64,000 nucleotides of DNA from a phage (GCA_017822615.1 GCA_017822615.1_4530.1); one strand, 5' to 3'. Shown: positions 8,371-52,431, counted from the first letter of the stretch. A program made the numbers and translations. The notes: a model not told the origin generated them from the letters alone.

Positions 8371-8400
8371 TTGACAATATTAAACATTTTATGATAGGAT
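8371..8400 (+). promoter_or_regulatory. promoter TTGACA-N18-TAGGAT with TG extended -10
   Basis: TTGACA at 8371-8376; aTGaTAGGAT at 8391-8400, same -10 region as tRNA-cluster promoter P3. Confidence 0.45.
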
Positions 8401-8408
8401 AGCATTCA

Positions 8409-8801
8409 ATGACTGAACGTTCTAAGATAGCTGTTGAAACTGTTTATGGAAACTACACCAGTTTGACACTAGTTGAGAAAAATGTTGTAGGTCTTGACAA
8501 CTCTTTTTATTTTCAAATTTTGGTTATTCAAGGTGGAAACAAGAAGCTAACTGCTCGTGTCGAAACATCTGAAATAATTGAAACCACTGTTACAAACAAA
8601 GAATTCATTTCACTGCAAGATACAATCCGAAACGTTATAGACGAAGAAGGCAAAGCTGCCACAATTAAACTCGGAGGTTTCCCAGTGCAAATAGTTCATT
8701 TTCCTAATGGTGAAATTGGAGTTGGAATAGGTAAAGGTAAATACCTGTTAGAGCAAGATGATATGGAAAGACTCCGCTCTTTCTGTGCAAAATTAATGTA
8801 A
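8409..8801 (+). CDS. hypothetical protein
   Basis: 130-aa ORF downstream of a promoter. Confidence 0.55.
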   Translation: MTERSKIAVETVYGNYTSLTLVEKNVVGLDNSFYFQILVIQGGNKKLTARVETSEIIETTVTNKEFISLQDTIRNVIDEEGKAATIKLGGFPVQIVHFPNGEIGVGIGKGKYLLEQDDMERLRSFCAKLM

Positions 8802-33150: not shown

Positions 33151-33245
33151 GATAACCTCGTAGTAATGATAATGCCAAAAGGAAGATGCAAGATCTTCCC
33201 ATATTGATTATTGTAACACATATAGAAACTTCGTGTCAAGGGAAA

Positions 33246-40578: not shown

Positions 40579-41580
40579 TTAAGCCGTAGTCAGTTTAACT
40601 ACCAGTTCTGGACGGGTGTTAACTGCGAGCAGCGAGAATTCAGACTGAAGCTGAATAGTGCGGTGCTGGCTGATCATGAAGGTATACAGTTCACGAGCCT
40701 GGGTGTTAGCCAGTTCTGGAGTATCCGCAGGAGCGTAGTGCGCCTGGAACATACCTTCGATACCCATAGGCAGAACATATGCTTCACCAGCAGGGATGTT
40801 ACCGTGGATATCTTCAATGTAAGTTACACCGTTCCATTCGAACACCTGAACATCCATGTTACCGCTAAGGCGGTCACGCAGAAGGTTAGGAGTTCCCTGG
40901 AAATACTGATACGCCTGGCGAACAAATGGAGAGTTAACCAGAGATGCGAAAAATTCACGAGAACACAGAGCTACGATACGGGTAGCGGTAGAGCCATCTT
41001 GTTTAGTATCGATGATGTAAGCACGAGCTTCTTGTTCGATAGTGGCTGCTGGAGAAACAGTGGTAGAAGCAAAGTCTACAGCAACAGATTTCTGGGTAGC
41101 ACCCCATTCGGTATACCAGTTGTATGCAGAGTTAGCTGCACCACCTACGCCGTTATAGGCACGACCCATAACTGCTTCTGCAAAGATTTTTTCTTTGGTT
41201 TTTGCTACGTCACGCAGAATCTGGGACATATAGCGGTTAACAACTTCAGCGTCTGTGCGCAGAGAGTCGTTGATTCCTGCCATTGCAAAGCTACGGAAAG
41301 ATTGAATATCTTGAGCTTTGATGTTTTTATCCAGAGGGAAGAACGGAATGCGGAACGCTTTCAGTTCTGGATTTTTCATGGTCAGGAAGTTACGCTCACC
41401 ACCACGCTCACGAGCGGAGATCAGAGCATCTTCAGCTTTTTCTTTACCGATTTCAATAGCGGTAGTTGAATGATAGTCAACACTGAACAGATTCAGGCTG
41501 GCAATCAGTGTATCAGGGGAATCCTGAAGTTCGATCATAGGGCTGAAATCTACAACCTGATCTAAAATTACTGCTGGCAT
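40579..41580 (-). CDS. major capsid protein (lambda gpE-like)
   Basis: 333 aa; C-terminal NTQARELYTFM resembles lambda E NTQARGLRTYG; follows decoration and scaffold genes. Confidence 0.8.
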   Translation of the reverse strand: MPAVILDQVVDFSPMIELQDSPDTLIASLNLFSVDYHSTTAIEIGKEKAEDALISARERGGERNFLTMKNPELKAFRIPFFPLDKNIKAQDIQSFRSFAMAGINDSLRTDAEVVNRYMSQILRDVAKTKEKIFAEAVMGRAYNGVGGAANSAYNWYTEWGATQKSVAVDFASTTVSPAATIEQEARAYIIDTKQDGSTATRIVALCSREFFASLVNSPFVRQAYQYFQGTPNLLRDRLSGNMDVQVFEWNGVTYIEDIHGNIPAGEAYVLPMGIEGMFQAHYAPADTPELANTQARELYTFMISQHRTIQLQSEFSLLAVNTRPELVVKLTTA

Positions 41581-41601
41581 TATATTAATCTCCTATTAAA
41601 A

Positions 41602-42000
41602 TTAAGAAGTGAAAACGACTTTTTCGGTCAGTTTCAGATCATGTGTTTCCAGTGCTGCTACGCCAGCGTCATCTACCAGGGAGCCATCTTTGTAGTATAC
41701 TGCAAAGCGGTTCAGAGTAAGATCACGTACGCCAACAACTGCGGTGAAAGTGTCACCTACTGCTACATCGTCAATACCGAACAGAGCATCAGTCCAAATC
41801 AGAACTTTAGCAGCATCGGCAGCTTCAGCTTTAGCAGCTTCAGTGTTGTCAGCTTTCAGGATAGAACCAATTTTCATGGTTGCTGTTTTAACCAGGTTAA
41901 CTTCACGTACACAGTGTCCAAGGTCAGAGCTAAACACTCCACCCAGAACCAGGTGTCCGAATTCCTGGCGAGAGTTAGATAAAGTAATTCCTTTAGCCAT
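41602..42000 (-). CDS. head decoration protein (gpD-like)
   Basis: 132 aa; Ala/Val/Thr-rich; between scaffold and capsid genes. Confidence 0.55.
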   Translation of the reverse strand: MAKGITLSNSRQEFGHLVLGGVFSSDLGHCVREVNLVKTATMKIGSILKADNTEAAKAEAADAAKVLIWTDALFGIDDVAVGDTFTAVVGVRDLTLNRFAVYYKDGSLVDDAGVAALETHDLKLTEKVVFTS

Positions 42001-42019
42001 TTAATTTAATCTCCTAAGA

Positions 42020-43135
42020 TTATTGTTTCTGGGCTTTTTTAAGTTCAGCAGCTTTCTGACTAATCAGTTCAGAAGAAGATTTAGCTACAGGTTGAGTATT
42101 GATCACGTCAACACCACGTTCTGTTCCAAATTCTTTCTTAACTGCGTCCACTTCTGCACGTGCTTTTTCGAATGCTTTGACGATAGTTTCAGCGATATCT
42201 TTATTGTCTACCAGATATTTAACGAGAGCTTCAACTTTGTCTTCTTCTACGAAAGAATAGGATTTAACAACAGTTGTATATTCTTCTTCGATACGAGCTT
42301 GTTCAGCTTTACGAAGTTCTTCTGCTTCCTGTTCTGCCTTAGCGATTTTTTCCTGTGCTTCAAGTTCTGCGGCTGCACGTGCATCTGCGGCTGCTTTTTC
42401 TACAGCTTCAGCGATCTGTGCTTTCATCAGTTCTTGGAATTCAGCAGATTTCAGGAATTCTTCTTTGTTGATATTTTCCAAAGGGGTTTCTCCTTTATTG
42501 ATTCCAGTTGTGTTTGCAGATTTATCACCTGCGGGGTTAGCCTCTGCATCCACAGAGTTTGTATTAGCTTTAGCGTGAGCTTTCACTAAATAATCTTTAA
42601 CTTGACTTTGTTTCAAGGAACTCTTAACGAGATTACTCAAAGCATCGTCTAAAACGTCCTCAAAGAAATCAATGGAGATCATTACATCACCATCAACAAC
42701 TTGATAATCAGTAACACGAACAACAGGTTTAGCAACCTCTTCAACTTCAACATTCAGTCCGTCAACTTTAAAGCCAACAGAGAACATACCGTTATCTGAA
42801 CAGAAAATTGCAACGTTCGCATCGAAGTCAGCATCAATAACGTAAACCCAATCCCAACCAGCTTCAAATTTTTCACGCACTTTTTCAGAAATGCGATCCA
42901 TCACTTGTTGAATATAGCTTTTACGTAACTCTGTAACATCTTCTCCCATTTTAGTGAGAGCTTCTAACTTTTCAAAAGTTATGTCTGGAGATCCGTCTGA
43001 CTTAAATAAAAGGGGGGTATTATAACCAGATGCCGCTCCACCTTGAAAATCAAAAGTGTAAGCAATATGAGCACCTAGTGACTCTTCCGTAGCTTTTCCA
43101 GAAAAGTCTACGTTAGTTAAATATGTATTTGCCAC
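42020..43135 (-). CDS. scaffolding protein
   Basis: 371 aa; long Ala/Glu/Lys coiled-coil C-terminal half. Confidence 0.6.
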   Translation of the reverse strand: MANTYLTNVDFSGKATEESLGAHIAYTFDFQGGAASGYNTPLLFKSDGSPDITFEKLEALTKMGEDVTELRKSYIQQVMDRISEKVREKFEAGWDWVYVIDADFDANVAIFCSDNGMFSVGFKVDGLNVEVEEVAKPVVRVTDYQVVDGDVMISIDFFEDVLDDALSNLVKSSLKQSQVKDYLVKAHAKANTNSVDAEANPAGDKSANTTGINKGETPLENINKEEFLKSAEFQELMKAQIAEAVEKAAADARAAAELEAQEKIAKAEQEAEELRKAEQARIEEEYTTVVKSYSFVEEDKVEALVKYLVDNKDIAETIVKAFEKARAEVDAVKKEFGTERGVDVINTQPVAKSSSELISQKAAELKKAQKQ

Positions 43136-43137
43136 GA

Positions 43138-43617
43138 TTAGTCCTTCTTGACTTTAACGCCCATTGCGCCTATACTCAAACCTTTAAGAACGCCGTCTTT
43201 ACGAGCTTGATATAATTCAGGGTCGTTGAATTGGATTTTAACGAGGGGAGTTCCTTCCACAACGAGTTCGTCACCAATGTAACAATCGACTTCATTTACC
43301 CAAGCTTTAATTGGAGAAAACTTATCGGTGTTCTTCATGTGACCAAGATTACCACTAATGTTGGTAATATTCTCATTGAAGTTGTCAACCATCTTCCTGA
43401 TTTCCAAATCAGACATGCGCTCTCCGTGGAGATCGTCTTCTTCAGGTGGACAATACAAGACCTCAATAACCTGCATCTTTTCTTCATCAAATTTATTTTG
43501 TTTGACTAGAGTTTCAGGTTTTTGAGATGGTATAGAATCTTGTTGGGATTCAGAATTCTCTTTAAAACCAGCGAAGGTTTTGAAGAGTTCCCACAGTGTA
43601 TCTTTATTGAGTTCCAT
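43138..43617 (-). CDS. head morphogenesis protein (possible prohead protease)
   Basis: 159 aa between portal and scaffold. Confidence 0.4.
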   Translation of the reverse strand: MELNKDTLWELFKTFAGFKENSESQQDSIPSQKPETLVKQNKFDEEKMQVIEVLYCPPEEDDLHGERMSDLEIRKMVDNFNENITNISGNLGHMKNTDKFSPIKAWVNEVDCYIGDELVVEGTPLVKIQFNDPELYQARKDGVLKGLSIGAMGVKVKKD

Positions 43618-43647
43618 TTGAAACCTCTTAAAAACAGATATCCCATA

Positions 43648-43682
43648 AATCTTAGTCTACAGGATATTTGTTGTTTTGTCAA
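43648..43682 (-). promoter_or_regulatory. minus-strand promoter with ctaTTGACAA -35 motif
   Basis: ttgtcaatag at 43674-43683 on the plus strand; upstream of the 43617 start. Confidence 0.45.
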
Positions 43683-43710
43683 TAGAAAAATTAAAAAATA
43701 TTAAATATTT

Positions 43711-45276
43711 TTAATTCGACAGGTTTTGTGCTGAAGGATCTAAAGCAGAAACAGTATCAGACGTTCCAGTTCCCGCTGTAGCTAAACCATCTCCTGATCG
43801 TGAAGTTTTGTCAGGCATATAGTTATCCATGAATTCAAAGAATTTCTCTTTATTGGCAACAATATCGTCAGGGATACGATATTCAAAACCAATTTTTTCA
43901 AGGAACTCGTTAATAACTTCTGGGGTTAAAGGTATTGCACCAGAGGCTACCAACTGCTGAATAGCTTTAGCATTTACTTCAATATCAGGATCACCCATTT
44001 CACCACTGACAAACTTAGGCATATCTTCATCAGAAAGGAAGATATTGTTTAGTCGTAGTGTTTGAGGGATCAGTTGAGAGTTTATAGCTTCTACAACAAT
44101 ATCTACATCCCGCTCAATAAAATGAGACAATAGTGTTTGTTTGTTGTCAGAAAGCGCAAAACTTCCTGCATCACCATCACCCATAATCAACACACCCGCA
44201 CCAAAGCGGTTATAAATATCTAGCTTGCGTTGTTTGATTAGTGCTTGAGTGTCAAACTGTTTACCCGTGCCATCAACACCTTGGAATACAAGGTCGTATT
44301 GACGCATCACTGTGCCTTCATAAACGTCTGAAGGCAATACCATGTAGGCTTGCTCACCAGAGTGCAGGTTAGCGATGTTGGCTTGGAGAACTCGAAGAGA
44401 TTGTGCTTCATCCCCAGCAGGATCTAAAGATGCCCTGTTTAGAATGTCACTTGGAACCTTAAGAACTGGCATACCGCCTAAATCTTTAGATACCCCAATA
44501 ACCTCAAATTCCTGAATAAGAGATTTTTCACGCCAGCTACGATATACAGCTAAAAGCGGACTAACTCCTAGTGGGTTATTCTCTGTAATGTTACTACCAA
44601 CAAATAAAACTTTACTGAAAGGAATTTCTTTAATACCAGTTTCTAAAGTTGTATTACCTGGAGCTAACATCGTATTGGTGATATTCTGGTTAACAGATAG
44701 AATAGAACGTCCGTCTGCCGAATATGTAAAAGGTTGAGCCATGTGAAGAGTGTCTTGTGGTCTAAAAGCCAGTTTGGTCAATCGCCAATACCCAAAGTAA
44801 GGACTCTTAGGATCTTCATCCAACTCATAAACTTTTTCTGCGAATGCAAACCCGTATTGCTTATATGTCAAAAGTGATCTAACATATTGACGTAGAGGGG
44901 CTTGCATATTGCGTAACATGTAATCAATAAACTTAGCAGCTTTTCTTGACTTTGCCGAGTTTACATTGTATTTTATCTTGAAATCAAAGAATGCTCTATC
45001 TACAAAGATATATGTAGCGTCAAGAGCAGTAGCTACATCAGGGTCTTCACCCATCTCTTTAAAAGTGCGAATACATTCTGGGAAACGAGTCTCATAAGGT
45101 TGCATGAAATTCGTAAATGCTTTGATTGAGTTTAATCCGATCGTTCCTATTTCAGGTGACAGGAGTAACGTTTTCTCTTTCTCTGCCTCTTTTGTTGGAG
45201 AGAGAGCAGCTTTATTTGCAGCACCTTTGTCCCAGTATTCTGACTTTTTAGTGTACGTTCTTTTTCCTGTTGACAC
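43711..45276 (-). CDS. portal protein
   Basis: 521 aa; downstream of large terminase. Confidence 0.75.
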   Translation of the reverse strand: MSTGKRTYTKKSEYWDKGAANKAALSPTKEAEKEKTLLLSPEIGTIGLNSIKAFTNFMQPYETRFPECIRTFKEMGEDPDVATALDATYIFVDRAFFDFKIKYNVNSAKSRKAAKFIDYMLRNMQAPLRQYVRSLLTYKQYGFAFAEKVYELDEDPKSPYFGYWRLTKLAFRPQDTLHMAQPFTYSADGRSILSVNQNITNTMLAPGNTTLETGIKEIPFSKVLFVGSNITENNPLGVSPLLAVYRSWREKSLIQEFEVIGVSKDLGGMPVLKVPSDILNRASLDPAGDEAQSLRVLQANIANLHSGEQAYMVLPSDVYEGTVMRQYDLVFQGVDGTGKQFDTQALIKQRKLDIYNRFGAGVLIMGDGDAGSFALSDNKQTLLSHFIERDVDIVVEAINSQLIPQTLRLNNIFLSDEDMPKFVSGEMGDPDIEVNAKAIQQLVASGAIPLTPEVINEFLEKIGFEYRIPDDIVANKEKFFEFMDNYMPDKTSRSGDGLATAGTGTSDTVSALDPSAQNLSN

Positions 45277-45345
45277 TTGTTCCTCCAGTCAGGTATAAAA
45301 TCGTTAAGGCAAGGCTGTATTATATACAACCTCACCTATCTAGTT

Positions 45346-45374
45346 ATAATACACTTTAAAGTGACTTTTGTCAA
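45346..45374 (-). promoter_or_regulatory. minus-strand sigma70-like promoter TTGACA-N17-TATTAT
   Basis: Consensus hexamers (plus strand tgtcaa 45369-45374, ataata 45346-45351) between terminase stop and portal start. Confidence 0.5.
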
Positions 45375-45377
45375 CAA

Positions 45378-47453
45378 TTATCTTTTACGGACACTATACG
45401 GTTGGTGAAATCCGCTGTTCATTCTACTGTATCCTGTAGGAGCATTTGTTGTTGCAGGGATAGCTACTGCTTTGAAAGTATTCTCTTTTGACAGAGTATT
45501 GAAACAAGAAGCAGCAGCATCGGGAATGTCATCTTTAATAGTGGCTGTAGATCTTTCACCATTGAAAGATTCCAATTCTTTATAAAAGTGGGTTAAAGTT
45601 TCCACATTAGGGAAAGAATCTTCAACAATATAAACAAAACCGTTTTGACACGCACTACTAAAAGGCATAAAACGCTGAAGCTTTTTCTTGTTGCCTGGCA
45701 TAGCATCTGGTTTAACAACAAAACCCTCTAGAATAAGTTTCTTTGCAGACTCTGTATATTCTATTGTCCCAGCACCAGATGGGTCTTTAGGAAGAACTAC
45801 TGTAACTTCTGGTCCATCAATCTTACATTGATTTAGAATCAGGTTATCCCTTTCCCCAGGTAATCTTCGAAACCTTCCGAAAATTTTACTTTTCTCATCC
45901 ACAGCATCATAATCATAGTCACCAAAGATGTAGATATTACCATCTTGGTCTTTACCCATTTTGACAGATGTTGTATAGTCTGGATAACGATAAGTTTCTG
46001 TAGGAATTGAAACAGCTTTATCCCATGCTCGCATTAGTTTAAGATTATTAGGAACATCTTTATAAGATATCTTATGCAACCATTCACGTTGGAAGAAAGA
46101 CTCTTTCTGTATACGTGCAAACCAACAGCCGTCCAAGAGTTGTGCTCTTTTGATTGCTGTTTGTGATTTAAGCTGTGCTAAATAATTAGGGTTAAGCCTA
46201 ATCAATTCTGGGTTATCAAATATTGTCCCACCGATAAATACGAAAGTTTGTGGTTCAATAACAACTGTCTCCCCTGTATTAGGGTTTTCCATGAAACAGT
46301 TTTCTGGATATTTTTCTTTCAGTTCTTCAGGTGTGTCAGCAAAAACAGGTTCATCGTTAACAATGATGAAATATTTTTGTTTACCACACATATCTTCTCT
46401 AGGATAACCACCCTCATCAAGATAAGGTAACACCCAATTCAAAACCCAACTATCTGCATCGGGGTTACATGTGCACAACATGAAGCTTGTTTCTGATTCT
46501 GAACGCATACGTCCCAGAAGATAGAGCATTTCATATTGCGTGAAGTGGGTTAACTCGTCAAAACCTACCATTGAATACTGTGTACCCTGATGGTTTGTTT
46601 CTGCTGTTACGTTGTCATTTTCCAAATGGTCGAATTTGAGGGTTCCACCACCAGTGGCTTCAAAAATGATATCCATTGTACTTTCTTTTACGTGCGGTTG
46701 TAAAGGAAGATACAAACGTTTTGCTTCTGTAAACAGACCACCTGGTTTACGGTGAGCAGTGGTGTTCTTACGGAAAAGTATTCCACCAAACAAAGGGTCT
46801 TTGTAGGCGTATTTTAAAGCTTTCAGCAATAGCAGACGAGACTTGCCGCTATTCCCAGTAACGAAGCAGTGATCGCCACGTCTAAAGACAATATAGCTGC
46901 TTGGAGTCTCAAAACAATATTTCTTATCATCTGTTGAAATAACCTCGTGTATTTTTAAGTAAGTGCTCTTTTTACCAGGTATGTTAAAAGGAACACGTTT
47001 ACCGAATGGATTTTCTACATAACCTTGCAGGGGTTTTCCTATTTGCTGTAATGCAATAAGATCTCCTACAAGAATCTCGAAATGTTTCTTTGATTTCTTT
47101 TTCTTATAGAATACAAAACGGTGTTCCATACTAAGTTCTTGGAACAATCCTACACCATTTGTTATTCTGTATAGGTTATCTCCATTTAAATCATATTCTA
47201 CAAAATAAGGTGTTACCAATTCTAAACGCTTATTCTTAGGATTGTATTGGTAAATATCCTCTCCCGAATATTCACTAATCTGTCTCCAACCATCTTTTGT
47301 AAGATATTCTGTTTCAGCAGAAACACATCCAGCGGCACCACCATAAATCATAACTTCTGGCATTAAATCCATTGCAAGAGTCTGTTTACCTGGTTGAGCC
47401 TTTACTTCAATATCTACTCCAGCTAAACTACCTGCTGCCTTTTTCTTTGCCAC
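45378..47453 (-). CDS. terminase large subunit, interrupted by a mini-intein
   Basis: 691 aa; Walker A split as MIYGGAAG / SGKS around a 159-aa insert; nuclease-type C-terminal half. Confidence 0.8.
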   Translation of the reverse strand: MAKKKAAGSLAGVDIEVKAQPGKQTLAMDLMPEVMIYGGAAGCVSAETEYLTKDGWRQISEYSGEDIYQYNPKNKRLELVTPYFVEYDLNGDNLYRITNGVGLFQELSMEHRFVFYKKKKSKKHFEILVGDLIALQQIGKPLQGYVENPFGKRVPFNIPGKKSTYLKIHEVISTDDKKYCFETPSSYIVFRRGDHCFVTGNSGKSRLLLLKALKYAYKDPLFGGILFRKNTTAHRKPGGLFTEAKRLYLPLQPHVKESTMDIIFEATGGGTLKFDHLENDNVTAETNHQGTQYSMVGFDELTHFTQYEMLYLLGRMRSESETSFMLCTCNPDADSWVLNWVLPYLDEGGYPREDMCGKQKYFIIVNDEPVFADTPEELKEKYPENCFMENPNTGETVVIEPQTFVFIGGTIFDNPELIRLNPNYLAQLKSQTAIKRAQLLDGCWFARIQKESFFQREWLHKISYKDVPNNLKLMRAWDKAVSIPTETYRYPDYTTSVKMGKDQDGNIYIFGDYDYDAVDEKSKIFGRFRRLPGERDNLILNQCKIDGPEVTVVLPKDPSGAGTIEYTESAKKLILEGFVVKPDAMPGNKKKLQRFMPFSSACQNGFVYIVEDSFPNVETLTHFYKELESFNGERSTATIKDDIPDAAASCFNTLSKENTFKAVAIPATTNAPTGYSRMNSGFHQPYSVRKR
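46851..47327 (-). other. mini-intein (159 aa) inside the terminase P-loop
   Basis: Starts CVSAETEYLTKDGW (block A), has ELSMEHRF (block B-like), ends DHCFVTGN followed by Ser; excision would give YGGAAGSGKS. Confidence 0.7.
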
Positions 47454-47462
47454 ATTCCCTCC

Positions 47463-47807
47463 TTATTCAGCAATAATACCTTTTTCTTGCAGTGTTTTAA
47501 TATATGTTTGTAAACCTAGAACCTTTCGTCTATCTTGCTCCCAAAGAGCATTGTTTTGAGTTTGGTTGTTAACAACTTCAGATCTACTAACCCCTTTTGC
47601 AATTTGATTTTTAGTGTATGGCACAGGTGTCGATACTTTATCCATCAAGTCCGAATCTGGACCTTTAACCTTTTCTATGGCTACAGCCTTACACTCATCA
47701 ATAAGAACTGGGGAAACTTTTGTTGATGATGAACAACCCGTCATCATTAGGGGCAAAGCAAGACATACTGCCAGAATTAGTTTTTGCATAATTCGTTGTA
47801 TCCTCAT
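47463..47807 (-). CDS. outer-membrane lipoprotein, putative o-spanin
   Basis: 114 aa; signal peptide with lipobox-like LMMTGC; starts 110 nt inside the upstream TM/coiled-coil gene in another frame. Confidence 0.5.
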   Translation of the reverse strand: MRIQRIMQKLILAVCLALPLMMTGCSSSTKVSPVLIDECKAVAIEKVKGPDSDLMDKVSTPVPYTKNQIAKGVSRSEVVNNQTQNNALWEQDRRKVLGLQTYIKTLQEKGIIAE

Positions 47808-48090
47808 TGATCGTTTGTTTCTTCTTCTCTAAATCTGCTTTTAATTGTGCATTGTTTTTAGACAAGTTGTTTATTTGAGTATTTAATAATGCTCTTTCTT
47901 CATCTGCTCTTTTTTGAAGAACATCAAAATCTTGTTTTGCTTTTGCTTGGGCTGCTTGATATACTTGCGTTTGATAGGCAACACCATCTTTGTAGCCAGA
48001 CTCACGTATCTTGTTATAAGCAAACATTCCGGCAAGAATAAGAACAACAATTAAAACAAAACTTAATACAGTTTTAGTCTTTAGATTCAT
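47698..48090 (-). CDS. putative i-spanin (Rz-like)
   Basis: 130 aa; N-terminal TM helix (VLSFVLIVVLILAGMFAY) then coiled-coil domain; overlaps the lipoprotein gene. Confidence 0.5.
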   Translation of the reverse strand: MNLKTKTVLSFVLIVVLILAGMFAYNKIRESGYKDGVAYQTQVYQAAQAKAKQDFDVLQKRADEERALLNTQINNLSKNNAQLKADLEKKKQTINEDTTNYAKTNSGSMSCFAPNDDGLFIINKSFPSSY

Positions 48091-48140
48091 TATCTTCTAC
48101 TTCCTCATAAAATTTTATTTTAGGAAGAGAAGGGGCGTTG

Positions 48141-48311
48141 TTAACTATCTTCTTCACTTCCATTGGTTGAGCCTCCGCTAGGATCTCTTCCCAAGTCTTC
48201 TCTGTCATCATAAAGTTCTTCCTCCAAGTTCCAAACCCGTGTGTAATCATTCTTTTTATCTTTATGATAAGAAGAACGGTTAAAATCATTTTTAACTACA
48301 AAATTGCGCAT
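48141..48311 (-). CDS. small acidic protein (56 aa), not in ORF track
   Basis: Strong RBS GAGGAGG 7 nt before ATG at 48311; competes with the RBS-less 71-aa track ORF 48074..48289. Confidence 0.35.
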   Translation of the reverse strand: MRNFVVKNDFNRSSYHKDKKNDYTRVWNLEEELYDDREDLGRDPSGGSTNGSEEDS

Positions 48312-48450
48312 ATTTTATCCTCCTCATATCTGATCTTATCACAAAATGATATACAATTGCAAGCATTAAAAATAAAAAAGCCCCTAACCTTTCGGAGAGG
48401 GGTGTTAAAAATAACAAGGAGGAGGGCAAAGCCCCAAGAGAGGAGAGGGA

Positions 48451-48747
48451 TTAGATTACGATCTTTTTAGGAACGTCATCTGTATTCTGCACGGCAGGGG
48501 TTTCTTCTTCCATAGCTTCATAATGTTCTTCTAACCATTCTTCTACTTGCTCTTTAATAGCTTTAGCTGCTTGGAAGCGGAGAGGTTTTGCTGCATCCTT
48601 ATCATTAACAAGTTCAACAATATACCGCATAGCTTCTAAATAATGCTCTGCAAATAATTCTTTTACACTTGCTTGCGCCGCATCCATTGCGTAAATCTGT
48701 TGCATTTCGGCTGTTGGTCTTCCACGACCACGTTTTAGTTTAGGCAT
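48451..48747 (-). CDS. DNA-binding protein, possible terminase small subunit
   Basis: 98 aa; N-terminal KRGRGRP basic motif; RBS AGGAGG; own promoter. Confidence 0.4.
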   Translation of the reverse strand: MPKLKRGRGRPTAEMQQIYAMDAAQASVKELFAEHYLEAMRYIVELVNDKDAAKPLRFQAAKAIKEQVEEWLEEHYEAMEEETPAVQNTDDVPKKIVI

Positions 48748-48768
48748 AATAAAATCCTCCTAAACTTT

Positions 48769-48797
48769 ATCTTAACATATAAAAAATAATAAGTCAA
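48769..48797 (-). promoter_or_regulatory. minus-strand promoter TTGACT-N17-TAAGAT
   Basis: Upstream of the 48747 start. Confidence 0.4.
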
Positions 48798-48811
48798 GTT
48801 TTATTCAATAG

Positions 48812-48839
48812 ATAGCAAAAAGCCTCCAATAAGGAGGCT
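48812..48839 (-). terminator. rho-independent terminator ending the tRNA transcription unit
   Basis: agcctcc-aataa-ggaggct hairpin with T-run on the minus strand. Confidence 0.55.
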
Positions 48840-48952
48840 AATAAATACTGTTAATTTGAAATGCTTTATTATAATTGTGCGTTAAGGAGTCGCACCCCTC
48901 CCTCTTAGAAGGAACCAGGCAAGGTCTTCAAAGATACCGCTGGCGCGATATT

Positions 48953-49031
48953 TGGAGGCGGGAATCGGATTCGAACCGATGATCTCCAGCATATGAAACT
49001 GGCGAGGACGACCAGACTCCTCTATCCCGCT
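48953..49031 (-). tRNA. tRNA-Met(CAT): tRNA, anticodon CAT (Met or lysidine-Ile), CCA encoded
   Basis: Manual cloverleaf: T-arm atcgg/attcgaa/ccgat, anticodon loop TTCATAT, 6/7 acceptor pairs. Confidence 0.6.
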
Positions 49032-49037
49032 ATTATG

Positions 49038-49107
49038 TATCCCGTGCTGGATTCGAACCAGCATCACAATAAGCTGTGGAACTCTTATCCTGTAAGTCTA
49101 ACGGGAA
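49038..49107 (-). tRNA. tRNA-like gene, anticodon unresolved
   Basis: Canonical T-arm gctgg/attcgaa/ccagc and 6/7 acceptor stem, but no regular anticodon arm could be folded. Confidence 0.35.
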
Positions 49108-49112
49108 ACTGG

Positions 49113-49183
49113 TTGTTTCGACAAGAATCGAACTTGTATCTCACGATTATCAGTCGTGGGTTCTACCATTGAACTACGAAACA
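49113..49183 (-). tRNA. tRNA-Ile(GAT): tRNA-Ile (GAT)
   Basis: Perfect 7-bp acceptor stem, D-stem GTTC/GAAC, anticodon loop CTGATAA, T-loop TTCGATT. Confidence 0.75.
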
Positions 49184-49192
49184 TTTAATTGG

Positions 49193-49266
49193 TCGGAATT
49201 GCAGGATTCGAACCTGCGACAATACGCTCCCAAAGCGTACACTCTACCAAACTGAGCTAAATTCCG
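49193..49266 (-). tRNA. tRNA-Pro(TGG): tRNA-Pro (TGG)
   Basis: Perfect acceptor stem, anticodon stem TACGC/GCGTA, loop TTTGGGA. Confidence 0.75.
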
Positions 49267-49363
49267 TCATAACATTCTAAAGGTACACCGCAAAAGAAAG
49301 TGTTCGGCGGCTCCTCGTTTTTTAACTTCACACTTGAGGTAGTGACTCACCTTTGTTGTATGG

Positions 49364-49436
49364 CTGGTCTGTCTGGATTTGAACCAAACCTACGACAGTC
49401 AAAGTGTCGTGTGCTACCTGACTACACTACAAACCA
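49364..49436 (-). tRNA. tRNA-Gln(TTG): tRNA-Gln (TTG)
   Basis: Anticodon stem CGACA/TGTCG, loop CTTTGAC, T-loop TTCAAAT. Confidence 0.7.
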
Positions 49437-49534
49437 ATAAATCATTTAATGAAGGGCAACCAGAAGAAGTGTGAGAGAAGGAGAAAACCATGAGTAAAAG
49501 AGAAAGTTTTCTGGCAACCCTTTATTAAATAATT

Positions 49535-49611
49535 TGGAGCGTTATATCGGATTCGAACCGATGCCACCGACTTGGAAGGACGGGATGCTGAACCGCTAAC
49601 ACTAATAACGC
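49535..49611 (-). tRNA. tRNA-Gly(TCC): tRNA-Gly (TCC), CCA encoded
   Basis: Perfect acceptor stem, anticodon loop CTTCCAA with one U-U mismatch in the stem. Confidence 0.65.
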
Positions 49612-49619
49612 TTTGTATA

Positions 49620-49654
49620 TATTTACTATACTACATTTTACTATTGGTTGTCAA
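49620..49654 (-). promoter_or_regulatory. tRNA promoter P1 (ctaTTGACAA, TG-extended -10)
   Basis: ttgtcaatag on plus strand at 49647-49656; TATAGT-like -10; reads into tRNA-Gly. Confidence 0.5.
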
Positions 49655-49930
49655 TAGTTTTATTGAGTGGGACAGTGACGAGTATCCCATTGGGTGACTA
49701 GCCCTACGTTCGGTAAGCTAACTTAAAATAATACAAAACAAAAGTCAAATATTATTCTTCGTTGCTGTCGATGGGAGAGCCGCTTCTTCTTTTGCCCCAT
49801 CCAACCCTACTCCGGTCAAGTTTCAGGTGACTCTTTTTGTGATCAACACAATACTAAGAACACTGTCTTTCGAGCAGACCTTGTGCACAGGATACGACGA
49901 TCAATCACAGTGCTCTTAATGTTGTGTTGG

Positions 49931-50002
49931 TGCTCCCACACTGAATCGAACAGAGATCCACGGATTACAAAACCGTTGTAATAGCCATTATACTATAGGA
50001 GC
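49931..50002 (-). tRNA. tRNA-Thr(TGT): tRNA-Thr (TGT)
   Basis: Acceptor stem with one G-U pair, anticodon loop TTTGTAA, T-loop TTCGATT. Confidence 0.6.
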
Positions 50003-50008
50003 AATGCT

Positions 50009-50086
50009 GGGACTCGGCAGGATTCGATACCTGCAATTCCAGAAGCCTATTGGCGACTGGGGGGTTTACCTTAACTCTACAAGTCC
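50009..50086 (-). tRNA. tRNA-like gene, non-canonical
   Basis: Acceptor stem (6 bp plus G-U) and T-stem GCAGG/CCTGC with an 8-nt T-loop; anticodon arm could not be placed. Confidence 0.3.
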
Positions 50087-50093
50087 ATAATTC

Positions 50094-50179
50094 TGGCGAT
50101 GAGTATAGGATTCGAACCTATATTGTTCTTTCGAACACGGATTAACAGTCCGCCGCTTAAACCATTCAGCCAACTCATC
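50094..50179 (-). tRNA. tRNA-Asn(GTT): type II (long variable arm) tRNA with Asn anticodon GTT, CCA encoded
   Basis: Perfect 7-bp acceptor, 3-bp D-stem, anticodon arm GCGGA-CTGTTAA-TCCGT, 15-nt variable arm GTTCGAAAGAACAAT, discriminator G73. Confidence 0.55.
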
Positions 50180-50185
50180 TTAATT

Positions 50186-50273
50186 TGGTGGTGAGTGATG
50201 GAGTCGAACCACCCGAATCGCAATGATAACAGATTTACAGTCTGCCCCGCTACCCCTACGGAATTAACTCACC
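50186..50273 (-). tRNA. tRNA-Tyr(GTA): tRNA-Tyr (GTA), type II, CCA encoded
   Basis: Perfect acceptor stem, anticodon arm GCAGA-CTGTAAA-TCTGT, long variable arm. Confidence 0.65.
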
Positions 50274-50403
50274 TAAATACTAATATTTAAATTCTTTTTA
50301 AAATAGCCAGTGTTCACACCACTAACTATGAGGTATCGGTAAAGTGGTTACCGCCACTTGCCGAAGATTTACTCTGCTAAAGTAAGCTACATTAAAAAGA
50401 ACT

Positions 50404-50489
50404 TGGCGGTAGATGTAGGACTCGAACCTACACGCCGTTTCCGACTACAGTTTAGCAAACTGTCGTGGCTACCATTTCACCAATCTACC
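50404..50489 (-). tRNA. tRNA-Ser(GCT): tRNA-Ser (GCT), type II, CCA encoded
   Basis: Perfect acceptor stem, anticodon arm ACAGT-TTGCTAA-ACTGT, 15-nt variable arm, G73. Confidence 0.7.
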
Positions 50490-50494
50490 TAATC

Positions 50495-50585
50495 TGGCGG
50501 AAGGAGGGAGAGTCGAACTCCCAAGGCTCTTTCAAGCTCGGCGGTTTTCAAGACCGTTTTCGTCGCCACATCGATTTGCCCTTCC
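50495..50585 (-). tRNA. tRNA-Ser(TGA): tRNA-Ser (TGA), type II, CCA encoded
   Basis: Anticodon loop CTTGAAA, long variable arm, T-loop TTCGACT, G73. Confidence 0.6.
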
Positions 50586-50593
50586 ATACTTAT

Positions 50594-50623
50594 AATCTAA
50601 CATAAAATAATGTTTGTTGTCAA
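50594..50623 (-). promoter_or_regulatory. tRNA promoter P2 (ctaTTGACAA, aTGtTAGATT)
   Basis: ttgtcaatag at 50616-50625; reads into tRNA-Ser(TGA). Confidence 0.5.
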
Positions 50624-50819
50624 TAGTTTTTTAAAACATTTTACCATGAATGGTGACTCCACCAACCCCCGTTCTCCACGAACGGTGCTCTTCGAGCATT
50701 TATGTCTTCTAATATAACCGTGGCCTTTGTTTATAATGTCTGACATACTTGCCTCATTCTCTGCCACCATGATCAGTAGTGGGTTCAAATCACTTGAGCT
50801 AATTCATGTTAAAATGTTC

Positions 50820-50894
50820 TGGTGTCTTTACAAGGAATCGAACCTTGACTAAGAGTTTAGAAGACTCCTGTGCTATCCATTACACCATAAAGAC
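50820..50894 (-). tRNA. tRNA-Arg(TCT): tRNA-Arg (TCT), CCA encoded
   Basis: Perfect acceptor stem, D-stem GTGT/GCAC, anticodon loop CTTCTAA. Confidence 0.7.
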
Positions 50895-50896
50895 TT

Positions 50897-50971
50897 TGGT
50901 GGCCCTGGCTGGTTTCGATCCAGCTACCTATCGGTTATGAGCCGACAGCTCTCCCATTGAGCTACAGGGCC
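50897..50971 (-). tRNA. tRNA-Met(CAT): tRNA-Met (CAT), possibly initiator-like, CCA encoded
   Basis: Perfect acceptor stem, anticodon loop CTCATAA with three G/C pairs closing the stem; unusual T-loop ATCGAAA. Confidence 0.65.
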
Positions 50972-51180
50972 ATAAATGTGGTAACAGAGACGCTGACGAT
51001 TGTAGAGAACCGCTACATTCTCTAAGACCAAGCCCAACTTTCAGCGTAAAAGTTCTTGAGCCGAGACTATTCCTTTTCCTCTTTGGTAGCTAACCTCTGA
51101 AGAAGTAGTCTCTAACACTACCGCAGTGCAAGCCCCTCTTAACAAAAGTCAACGACCCTGTTACCACACTTGATGAACGT

Positions 51181-51210
51181 ATCCTAACATATGAAGGATA
51201 CGTTTGTCAA
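51181..51210 (-). promoter_or_regulatory. tRNA promoter P3 (ctaTTGACAA, aTGtTAGGAT)
   Basis: ttgtcaatag at 51203-51212; reads toward the tRNA-Met/Arg end of the cluster. Confidence 0.5.
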
Positions 51211-51217
51211 TAGTTAT

Positions 51218-51949: not shown

Positions 51950-51981
51950 TGCACACCTCCATTCTTGTTAAGATGTTCCGT

Positions 51982-52010
51982 ACTGTACTTCATACTAATC
52001 TATAGATCAA
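51982..52010 (-). promoter_or_regulatory. candidate minus-strand promoter TTGATC-N17-TACAGT
   Basis: Hexamers with 17-nt spacing about 33 nt upstream of the 51949 start, inside the divergent AT-rich region. Confidence 0.3.
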
Positions 52011-52431
52011 GTATTATTTATAATAATTTATTATTTTATTTTTTAATTGATAGAAGTTGATCTGTACGTACCAGTTCTGATACACTGTACCTGTTTGTTA
52101 GATCTAATAATTATTTATTATTAATATTTAATAATTATTAATCTAGTACGGAGTACAGTACTTGAGTACAGAGTACTACATCAACAACCTAAAACCTTAA
52201 CTCGCTGCGCTCGTTAATAGATTTCTAGGGTAGCATACTTCGAACACAAAAGTCAAGAGTTTTATTAAAATTATTTTCTGTGTGCAAAAAACCTTGCTTA
52301 AATAGGTAGCAATAGTATAGCCTATAACATAAGCTTCATAAGAGGCTCGTAGAGCAAGTTCACTTACTAGGTAAGGTGATTTATCATCTTATATATAAAA
52401 AGTGCGTCAGAGACGCGTTTAGGAGGCTAGA

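Follow-up and report, generated by a model that had tools for sequence, protein, structure and literature searches.

Genes and repeated sites between 43 and 52 kb

The stretch of phage DNA analysed here (GCA_017822615.1, 64,000 nucleotides, called the window below) contains four copies of a 10-mer that reads CTATTGACAA on the minus strand and TTGTCAATAG on the plus strand and that probably marks four promoters for the RNA polymerase of the host. The window comes from a Phapecoctavirus: the part that holds these copies, from 43 to 52 kb, shares 98-99% identity with Escherichia phages in this genus of the subfamily Stephanstirmvirinae, such as ESCO13, phAPEC8-type isolates, ZCKP1 and ASO2A, all of which are myoviruses of about 150 kb; the G+C content of the window is 39%. 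On the minus strand, small hypothetical genes are followed by a tRNA array, lysis genes and further small genes, and then by the genes of the terminase large subunit, the portal, a 159-aa protein, a 371-aa protein, the head decoration protein and the major capsid protein. The existing annotation of the tRNA array and the head operon does not include the sites described here, as ESCO13 has only ribosome-binding sites annotated there and ASO2A only terminators.

The 10-mer occurs exactly four times, at 43676-43685, 49648-49657, 50617-50626 and 51204-51213, whereas 0.34 copies are expected by chance and none of 100 shuffles gave four; with one mismatch allowed, its variants show no excess (11 seen versus 7.7 expected). 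The first-pass annotation of the window had thus counted the copies correctly, with coordinates that were 1-2 nt too low. The motif search over a whole genome that it had proposed was run on the related complete genome OQ031492.1 (149 kb), where the 10-mer likewise has four copies, all of them at the loci known from the window. Each site lies upstream of minus-strand genes in the same orientation, as had been claimed, and the genes are immediately adjacent. Three sites precede blocks of tRNA genes and one precedes the head genes, also as proposed, with the addition that a structured RNA of 205 nt comes before the first tRNA at one of them. The sites are named here by the first position of their TTGACA, and together with the genes behind them they are as follows.

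43654..43685, minus strand: predicted head-operon promoter (43682), CTA and TTGACA (43682-43677), AAACAACAAATATCCTG spacer of 17 bp, TAGACT (43659-43654)
49625..49657, minus strand: predicted tRNA-Gly block promoter (49654), CTA and TTGACA (49654-49649), ACCAATAGTAAAATGTAG spacer of 18 bp, TATAGT (49630-49625)
50594..50626, minus strand: predicted tRNA-Ser block promoter (50623), AAAAAA tract, CTA and TTGACA (50623-50618), ACAAACATTATTTTATGT spacer of 18 bp, TAGATT (50599-50594)
51181..51213, minus strand: predicted first promoter of the tRNA array (51210), CTA and TTGACA (51210-51205), AACGTATCCTTCATATGT spacer of 18 bp, TAGGAT (51186-51181)
40579..43617, minus strand: head genes 3' of the 43682 promoter, for a 159-aa protein (protease-like), a 371-aa protein, the head decoration protein and the major head protein
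48953..50971, minus strand: tRNA array with 12 genes that form three blocks, each behind a predicted promoter, Met/Ile(CAU)-Arg, Ser(UGA)-Ser(GCU)-Tyr-Asn-Thr and Gly-Gln-Pro-Ile-Met

Promoter elements

The -35 hexamer matches TTGACA in six of six positions at all four sites and also at a plus-strand site at 8371 (see below). The spacers measure 17, 18, 18 and 18 bp, A-11 and T-7 of the -10 element are present at every site, and an A/T tract lies directly 5' of each CTA (AAAAAA, AATAA, AAAA or a run of only T and A). The sites had been described as a family with a TG-extended -10, in which the 10-mer is followed 14 nt later by aTGt and a hexamer. This is literally so at 50623 and 51210, where a canonical TGn is found (TaTGtTAGATT and TaTGtTAGGAT), as it is at 8371 (TaTGaTAGGAT). 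At 43682 the description fits loosely, as the TG follows 14 nt past the 10-mer but reads cTGt and touches the hexamer and is therefore not at -15/-14, and at 49654 it fails, as the TG comes 12 nt past the 10-mer and the best -10 is TATAGT with an 18-bp spacer and no TGn. A TG-extended -10 thus applies to two of the four sites. Promoters with TGn tend to have 18-bp spacers and a weak -10, and T4 early promoters join UP, -35, TGn and -10 elements (PMC2613000).

The 49654 promoter lies 13 nt upstream of tRNA-Gly, which starts at 49611, and its predicted start at about 49618 lies 7 nt before that gene. From the 50623 promoter to the tRNA-Ser(UGA)-like gene the distance is about 8 nt, and the predicted start at about 50587 is 2 nt before the gene. 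At 51210, with a predicted start at about 51174, a non-coding stretch of 205 nt intervenes before tRNA-Met/Ile(CAU). Only at 43682 is there a Shine-Dalgarno site with an ATG 3' of the promoter; the predicted start at about 43647 is followed there by a 29-nt leader and the ATG at 43617 of the 159-aa gene.

Enrichment in non-coding DNA and conservation

In the related 149-kb genome, of which 9% is non-coding, perfect TTGACA sites were sorted by the presence of a TAnnnT at 16-18 bp. Sites with such a -10 are distributed over non-coding and coding DNA as 22 to 26 and sites without it as 6 to 81, so that the combination is enriched in non-coding DNA with an odds ratio of 11.4 (p = 2e-7).

Each of the four sites has a positional ortholog in lineages with coding DNA of 73-81% identity, namely phiWec188-like, phi92-like (Antha, L014) and KP2025/L018 phages, and across three to five diverged lineages TTGACAA, TGn and the -10 are kept while the spacers have diverged. 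At the Gly promoter, TTGACAA and TA(T/G/A)AGTAA are invariant across five lineages and CTA and the spacer vary. At the Ser promoter, AAAA.GTTTTAAAA, TTGACAA and TGTTAGATT are invariant in the orthologs of 50623; apart from tRNAs, few blocks can still be aligned between the window and phage Antha, and this promoter is among them. The first promoter of the array is represented in the phiWec188 lineage by TTGACA-17-TAAGAT. The tRNA promoters keep their core elements only, unlike the head promoter, where relatives down to 63% protein identity show near-invariance of TATTGACAAA and of the stretch that includes the 3' half of the spacer and extends to the Shine-Dalgarno site. Orthologs of the head promoter are found in phiWec188, Antha, KP2025 and seven metagenomic relatives, and the near-invariance of promoter and leader holds where the flanking genes are about 76% identical in DNA.

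Taken together, the explanation that is favoured here, with good confidence, is that the four CTATTGACAA sites would be constitutive promoters of a Phapecoctavirus that depend on host sigma-70, and that the 10-mer would represent a phage-wide consensus (cTA-TTGACA-a). The proposal that the sites are read by host sigma-70 is well supported at the sequence level by the -35, the spacers, the -10, the placement, the non-coding enrichment and the conservation. The perfect TTGACA would be read by sigma region 4, TGn, where present, by region 3, and TAGnnT or TATAGT by region 2, and the A/T tract at about -40 to -50 is probably bound by the alpha C-terminal domains. Elements, placement, enrichment and conservation are direct observations, from which we infer initiation itself, its strength and timing, and the contact with the alpha C-terminal domains. 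Along the single tRNA array, each of the three promoters would add transcription to the tRNAs that lie 3' of it; the transcripts of a block would start 2-7 nt ahead of its first tRNA, except at 51210, where they would start at the foot of the 205-nt RNA, and the 5' ends would be trimmed by RNase P. The fourth promoter would boost the head-protein genes within the structural gene cluster.

General consensus or distinct regulon

The first-pass annotation had suggested that the four sites form one regulon that is possibly tuned by a phage factor. When the 22 non-coding consensus promoters of the related genome are compared, position -38 is most often C (36%), -37 most often T (68%), and both -36 and -29 most often A (50% each), and many of these promoters carry 5-7 A within -46 to -39. 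The extra bases of the 10-mer, CTA and the trailing A, are hence the commonest bases phage-wide, so that CTATTGACAA is the consensus of the promoter population and no separate signal; with these position frequencies, a set of about 23 promoters should contain about 1.4 exact 10-mers, compared with the 4 observed. In the orthologs CTA is not kept, as GGTA is found at the head promoter in three lineages and GTG, CTAC, CTC and TAC at the tRNA promoters. With a flank that is phage-wide consensus and is lost in orthologs, and with constraints that differ between the head and the tRNA promoters, the idea of one regulon could not be upheld.

It would still be conceivable that a transcription factor encoded by the phage, or a protein that modifies sigma, recognises CTATTGACAA together with the aTGtTAG motif and co-regulates tRNAs and head genes as one regulon. 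The exact 10-mer is present at only four sites in about 150 kb, the third -10 position has an unusual G here and in orthologs (TAGATT, TAGGAT, TAGACT, TAGAGT), and the head promoter region is near-invariant well past the core elements, all of which would suit such a factor. This is nevertheless very improbable, as CTA is substituted in orthologs while position and core elements persist, the flanking bases are those of the general consensus, the -35 is a perfect host consensus with no factor box in its place as in T4 MotA promoters, and head and tRNA promoters differ sharply in their patterns of constraint. A candidate operator, TATCC-N-GGATA, common to 43682 and 51210, was rejected, since its frequency is at the level of chance (5 pairs in 149 kb versus about 4 expected). 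Nothing found thus indicates that a phage factor tunes these promoters.

Possible common descent of the tRNA promoters

Over 18 nt, the three tRNA promoters are 83-94% identical to one another, and in one pair the likeness covers 23 nt at 87% identity. The tRNA promoters may thus be paralogous copies of one short promoter cassette that was spread or homogenised by duplication or recombination in the tRNA array, in which case the identity of the 10-mers would be due to descent. This fits with the phi92-like lineage, where AAAAACTA-n-TTGACAA, a variant longer by one base, is found at two promoters of the tRNA region, which looks like homogenisation within the lineage. Suggestive of breakpoints of the type described for PeSL cassettes are the tRNA content, which varies block by block between lineages, and a sequence replacement by which close relatives differ directly behind the Gly promoter -10. 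PeSL cassettes of T4-type phages (PMC2839356, PMC4122927) also are short repeated near-consensus sigma-70 motifs with AT-rich upstream sequences in plastic regions, and terminator-promoter composites resembling them, with promoters directly behind terminator hairpins, are found elsewhere in the window (at 33239, 63797, 3247 and 48797). At the four CTATTGACAA sites, however, the upstream stem-loop that defines a PeSL is absent, as no terminator-like stem-loop was found immediately 5' of any of these promoters, and there are further differences to PeSLs: three of the sites drive RNAs and not genes with Shine-Dalgarno sites, and a hairpin at 51210 (see below) overlaps its promoter rather than preceding it. 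The likeness of the tRNA promoters stops within about 20 nt, with no longer flanking homology found, and the positional orthologs of each promoter in lineages of about 75-80% identity indicate that the copies are old, so that their identity is better explained by selection toward the consensus. An origin by copying of a cassette is therefore an unlikely explanation of the 10-mers.

Weighing of the promoter assignment

Several points weigh against the assignment as sigma-70 promoters that share a general consensus. A lenient consensus scan of 42-54 kb gave 32 promoter-like sites versus 31.8 in shuffles, and for this reason the argument rests on top-scoring, well-placed and conserved sites. The literature searched contained neither mapped transcription starts nor RNA-seq or in vitro results for Phapecoctavirus or Stephanstirmvirinae. 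The excess of 10-mers over the expectation from position frequencies, 4 versus 1.4, is borderline (Poisson about 0.05), and given the 15-18 nt that the three tRNA promoters have in common, gene conversion or shared ancestry may have contributed to some extent. The head promoter region is, as judged from its alignments, constrained far beyond the needs of promoter function alone, and a strong -35-dependent promoter before late (head) genes is unusual in large lytic phages.

The first two of these points would also suit the view that the sites are chance matches to the consensus or relics and that tRNAs and head genes are transcribed only by read-through from upstream promoters, which is possible in so far as all four sites lie within longer co-oriented transcription units. 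Since the hexamers and TGn are conserved on a diverging background in up to five lineages, the non-coding enrichment is strong, and the predicted starts lie precisely beside tRNA 5' ends and the foot of an RNA helix, there is hardly any probability left for this view. The four sites can thus be regarded as real and probably functional, ordinary sigma-70 promoters of a well-known kind.

The tRNA array

In the array, ARAGORN detects 10 tRNAs, to which Rfam adds 50189-50273 and 50499-50585, and the record MZ726793 annotates 12. The two genes missed by ARAGORN are long-arm tRNAs, a Ser-UGA-like one (50499-50585) and a Tyr one (50189-50273), which are found both by Rfam and in the ASO2A annotation; the Ser(UGA)-like gene scores 35.7 bits in Rfam as a long-arm tRNA and is annotated as tRNA-Ser-TGA in relatives. 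The array has a single good intrinsic terminator.

48821..48839, minus strand: intrinsic terminator that closes the tRNA array, AGCCTCC-ttatt-GGAGGCT followed by TTTTT, annotated as terminator in MZ726793

With one array and one terminator, the three tRNA promoters can be understood as internal boosters of one unit. The inter-tRNA spacers at 50627-50819 (193 nt), 50274-50403 (130 nt) and 49437-49534 (98 nt), all on the minus strand, are end-to-end hairpin modules with fold z-scores of -4.4, -3.7 and -5.6, respectively, and their termini pair beside the flanking tRNAs or promoters. The minus-strand spacers at 50003-50093 and 49032-49109 contain T-arm-like GGTTCGAATCC motifs and resemble decayed tRNA genes. 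The tRNA-Gly promoter region (49605-49700, minus strand) has a lineage-specific inverted repeat of 6-7 bp around the -35 in the window and in L013, L014, L018 and L012. These repeats, CTATTG/CAATAG, AGCCTC/GGGGCT and AATACTT/AAGTATT, have registers that differ by up to 1.5 nt and may be due to chance.

A structured RNA and a hairpin at the first array promoter

Two structures are found at the 51210 promoter.

50972..51176, minus strand: structured non-coding RNA of 205 nt, between the 51210 promoter and the first tRNA
51166-51213, minus strand: hairpin of 10-14 bp that engulfs the whole 51210 promoter, TTGA/TCAA plus AACGTATCCT/AGGATACGTT

The 205-nt RNA folds with a minimum free energy of -76.8 kcal/mol (z = -5.3) into a closing helix of 26 bp with several internal hairpins, and the predicted start of the 51210 promoter lies at the foot of this helix. 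In a comparison of the window with an 80%-identical lineage, 98% of the cells of 73 pairs are paired, and 13 pairs are changed on both sides versus at most 4 in slid controls. The RNA is restricted to Phapecoctavirus (71 records) and is unannotated in all 71, and in an Rfam search of the promoter regions, the spacers and the 205-nt RNA, no matches other than the tRNAs were obtained.

The hairpin has a minimum free energy as RNA of -18.5 kcal/mol (z = -5.4). The phiWec188 lineage retains it with altered sequence, and a change in the -10 (TAGGAT to TAAGAT) is compensated there. Read-through transcripts might be processed at this hairpin or have it as a 3'-end structure. The idea that promoters form hairpins in general was considered and rejected, since 41 predicted promoters fold like random windows (mean z of -0.15 versus -0.07, Mann-Whitney p = 0.40) and the Gly-promoter repeats of three lineages are not in one register. 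Inverted repeats around the -35 are seen at several promoters and their orthologs, and only the 51210 hairpin stands out.

A tentative extension of the favoured explanation, possible but rather doubtful, is that the promoters are the heads of modular units of promoter, structured spacer RNA and tRNA, that 51210 expresses an undescribed multi-helix RNA of about 200 nt, and that the 51210 hairpin and the near-invariant head promoter and leader are extra control devices. The RNA would begin at the transcription start of 51210 and be freed by RNase P cutting at the first tRNA, and the hairpin and the head promoter with its leader would be read-through attenuation or processing sites that are overlaid on sigma-70 promoters. 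If this is true, the phage, which encodes neither a sigma factor nor an RNA polymerase, could use such devices for the timing of expression.

The head operon

The region of the head promoter at 43618-43685 (minus strand), with the -10 and the U-rich leader of 29 nt, contains an almost invariant AATATCCTGTAGACTAAGATTTATGGGATATtTGTTTTTA in the relatives L008-L010 and L013-L020. A leaderless upstream open reading frame of 6 codons in the leader was rejected as a candidate, its stop codon being conserved neither in the window nor in phiWec188.

The 159-aa protein (43138-43617, minus strand) matches a PHROG labelled DNA methyltransferase and also a head maturation protease PHROG. It is called DNA methyltransferase in RefSeq-style annotations, and its gene is located between the portal and capsid genes. 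As it matches the protease PHROG and lies between portal and capsid genes, the label as DNA methyltransferase is probably wrong and a prohead protease is likely.

Records labelled as phages of Campylobacter, Klebsiella, Acinetobacter and Pseudomonas match the window at 43300-44100 with 81-100% identity, among them MG065650.1 ("Campylobacter phage B15") with 100% identity across 801 nt. The host labels of these records look doubtful.

Other predicted promoters and a candidate control region

Further promoters were predicted in the window at the following positions.

8371..8400, plus strand: promoter TTGACA-18-TaTGaTAGGAT, with the ATG of a 130-aa open reading frame at 8409
45346..45374, minus strand: promoter of the general population, TTGACA-17-TATTAT, between the terminase and portal genes, position conserved in L013, L014 and L018
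33210..33239, minus strand: promoter of the general population, TTGACA-18-TGtTACAAT, behind a terminator hairpin
52227..52256, minus strand: leftward promoter in a divergent control region, AATAAAACTC-TTGACT-18-TGcTACCCT

The plus-strand element at 8371-8400, which had already been noted for sharing TGaTAGGAT, was confirmed. Its surroundings are not colinear between the window and ESCO13, where a transfer of coordinates falls inside the DNA polymerase gene, and the gene behind it was assigned by PHROG matching and not by ESCO13 coordinates: the 130-aa open reading frame matches phrog_16560 over positions 1-130 of 130. At 8395-8411 (plus strand), the -10 TAGGAT ends 8 nt before the ATG, and the mRNA is thus predicted to be leaderless or to have a leader of 1-2 nt; the AGGA within the -10 could be a Shine-Dalgarno site for read-through transcripts.

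The 15 nt upstream of the 52227..52256 promoter resemble the tRNA promoters, and its TG.TACCCT is conserved in L013. It belongs to a non-coding region of 480 bp (51950-52431) between divergent gene blocks, which has palindromic stretches of pure A/T and repeats containing GTAC, namely AGTAC[G/A]GAGTAC and GTAC[T/A]GTACTT, each found twice, and which is a candidate control or origin region. Outside the window, OQ031492.1 has at about 141-148 kb at least 7 sigma-70-like promoters that are each directly followed by a conserved box CAC(G/A)TAGGGCGG(C/G)AATGGTGC, perhaps a small RNA family or a 5' leader that is repeated. Of the GTAGGGCGG box that follows promoters in this relative, no copy is found in the window.

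Comparison with known systems and significance

The tRNA promoters resemble the stable-RNA promoters of E. coli with UP elements in having an A-tract right before the -35 and only a very short leader ahead of the tRNA, and they differ in their discriminators, which are AT-rich (ATAAGTA, ACGTTCA, AAATATA) and not GC-rich. With such discriminators, stringent or growth-rate control is not expected.

An A/T-rich upstream element, a -35, TGn and a -10 that falls short of the consensus likewise occur together in T4 early promoters and in the "-35/TGn" class of E. coli promoters (reviewed by Hook-Barnard and Hinton 2007, PMC2613000). They differ in that the T4 promoters are shut off via AsiA/MotA and ADP-ribosylation, while no such switch is evident in the window phage, and in that only two of the four window sites have a canonical TGn and the window promoters are predicted ones. 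The coliphage rV5 (Vequintavirinae) is, like the window phage, a large lytic myovirus of E. coli without an RNA polymerase of its own. For this phage, 33 sigma-70 consensus promoters have been listed, of which 11 have an extended -10 and one (PtRNA) lies before tRNAs; they have the form TTGACA-N15-18-TAnnnT and are distributed over early and structural regions, and the authors took them as an argument that reprogramming of the host polymerase may not occur (Kropinski et al. 2013, PMC3606486). rV5 belongs to another subfamily, however, its sequences are not orthologous, its promoter list is a prediction only, and no shared cTA flank has been reported.

The practical value of the sites is modest, as they would offer strong, compact and probably factor-independent promoters for engineering, and the promoter result itself opens no new question. 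The structured RNA, the promoter-spanning hairpin and the near-invariant head leader are more intriguing than the 10-mer itself. For a genus that is widely isolated for therapy, the promoters of the tRNA array and the head operon can now be mapped in a defensible way, and this map supports the view based on rV5 that large myoviruses run much of their programme, structural genes included, from host-type promoters.

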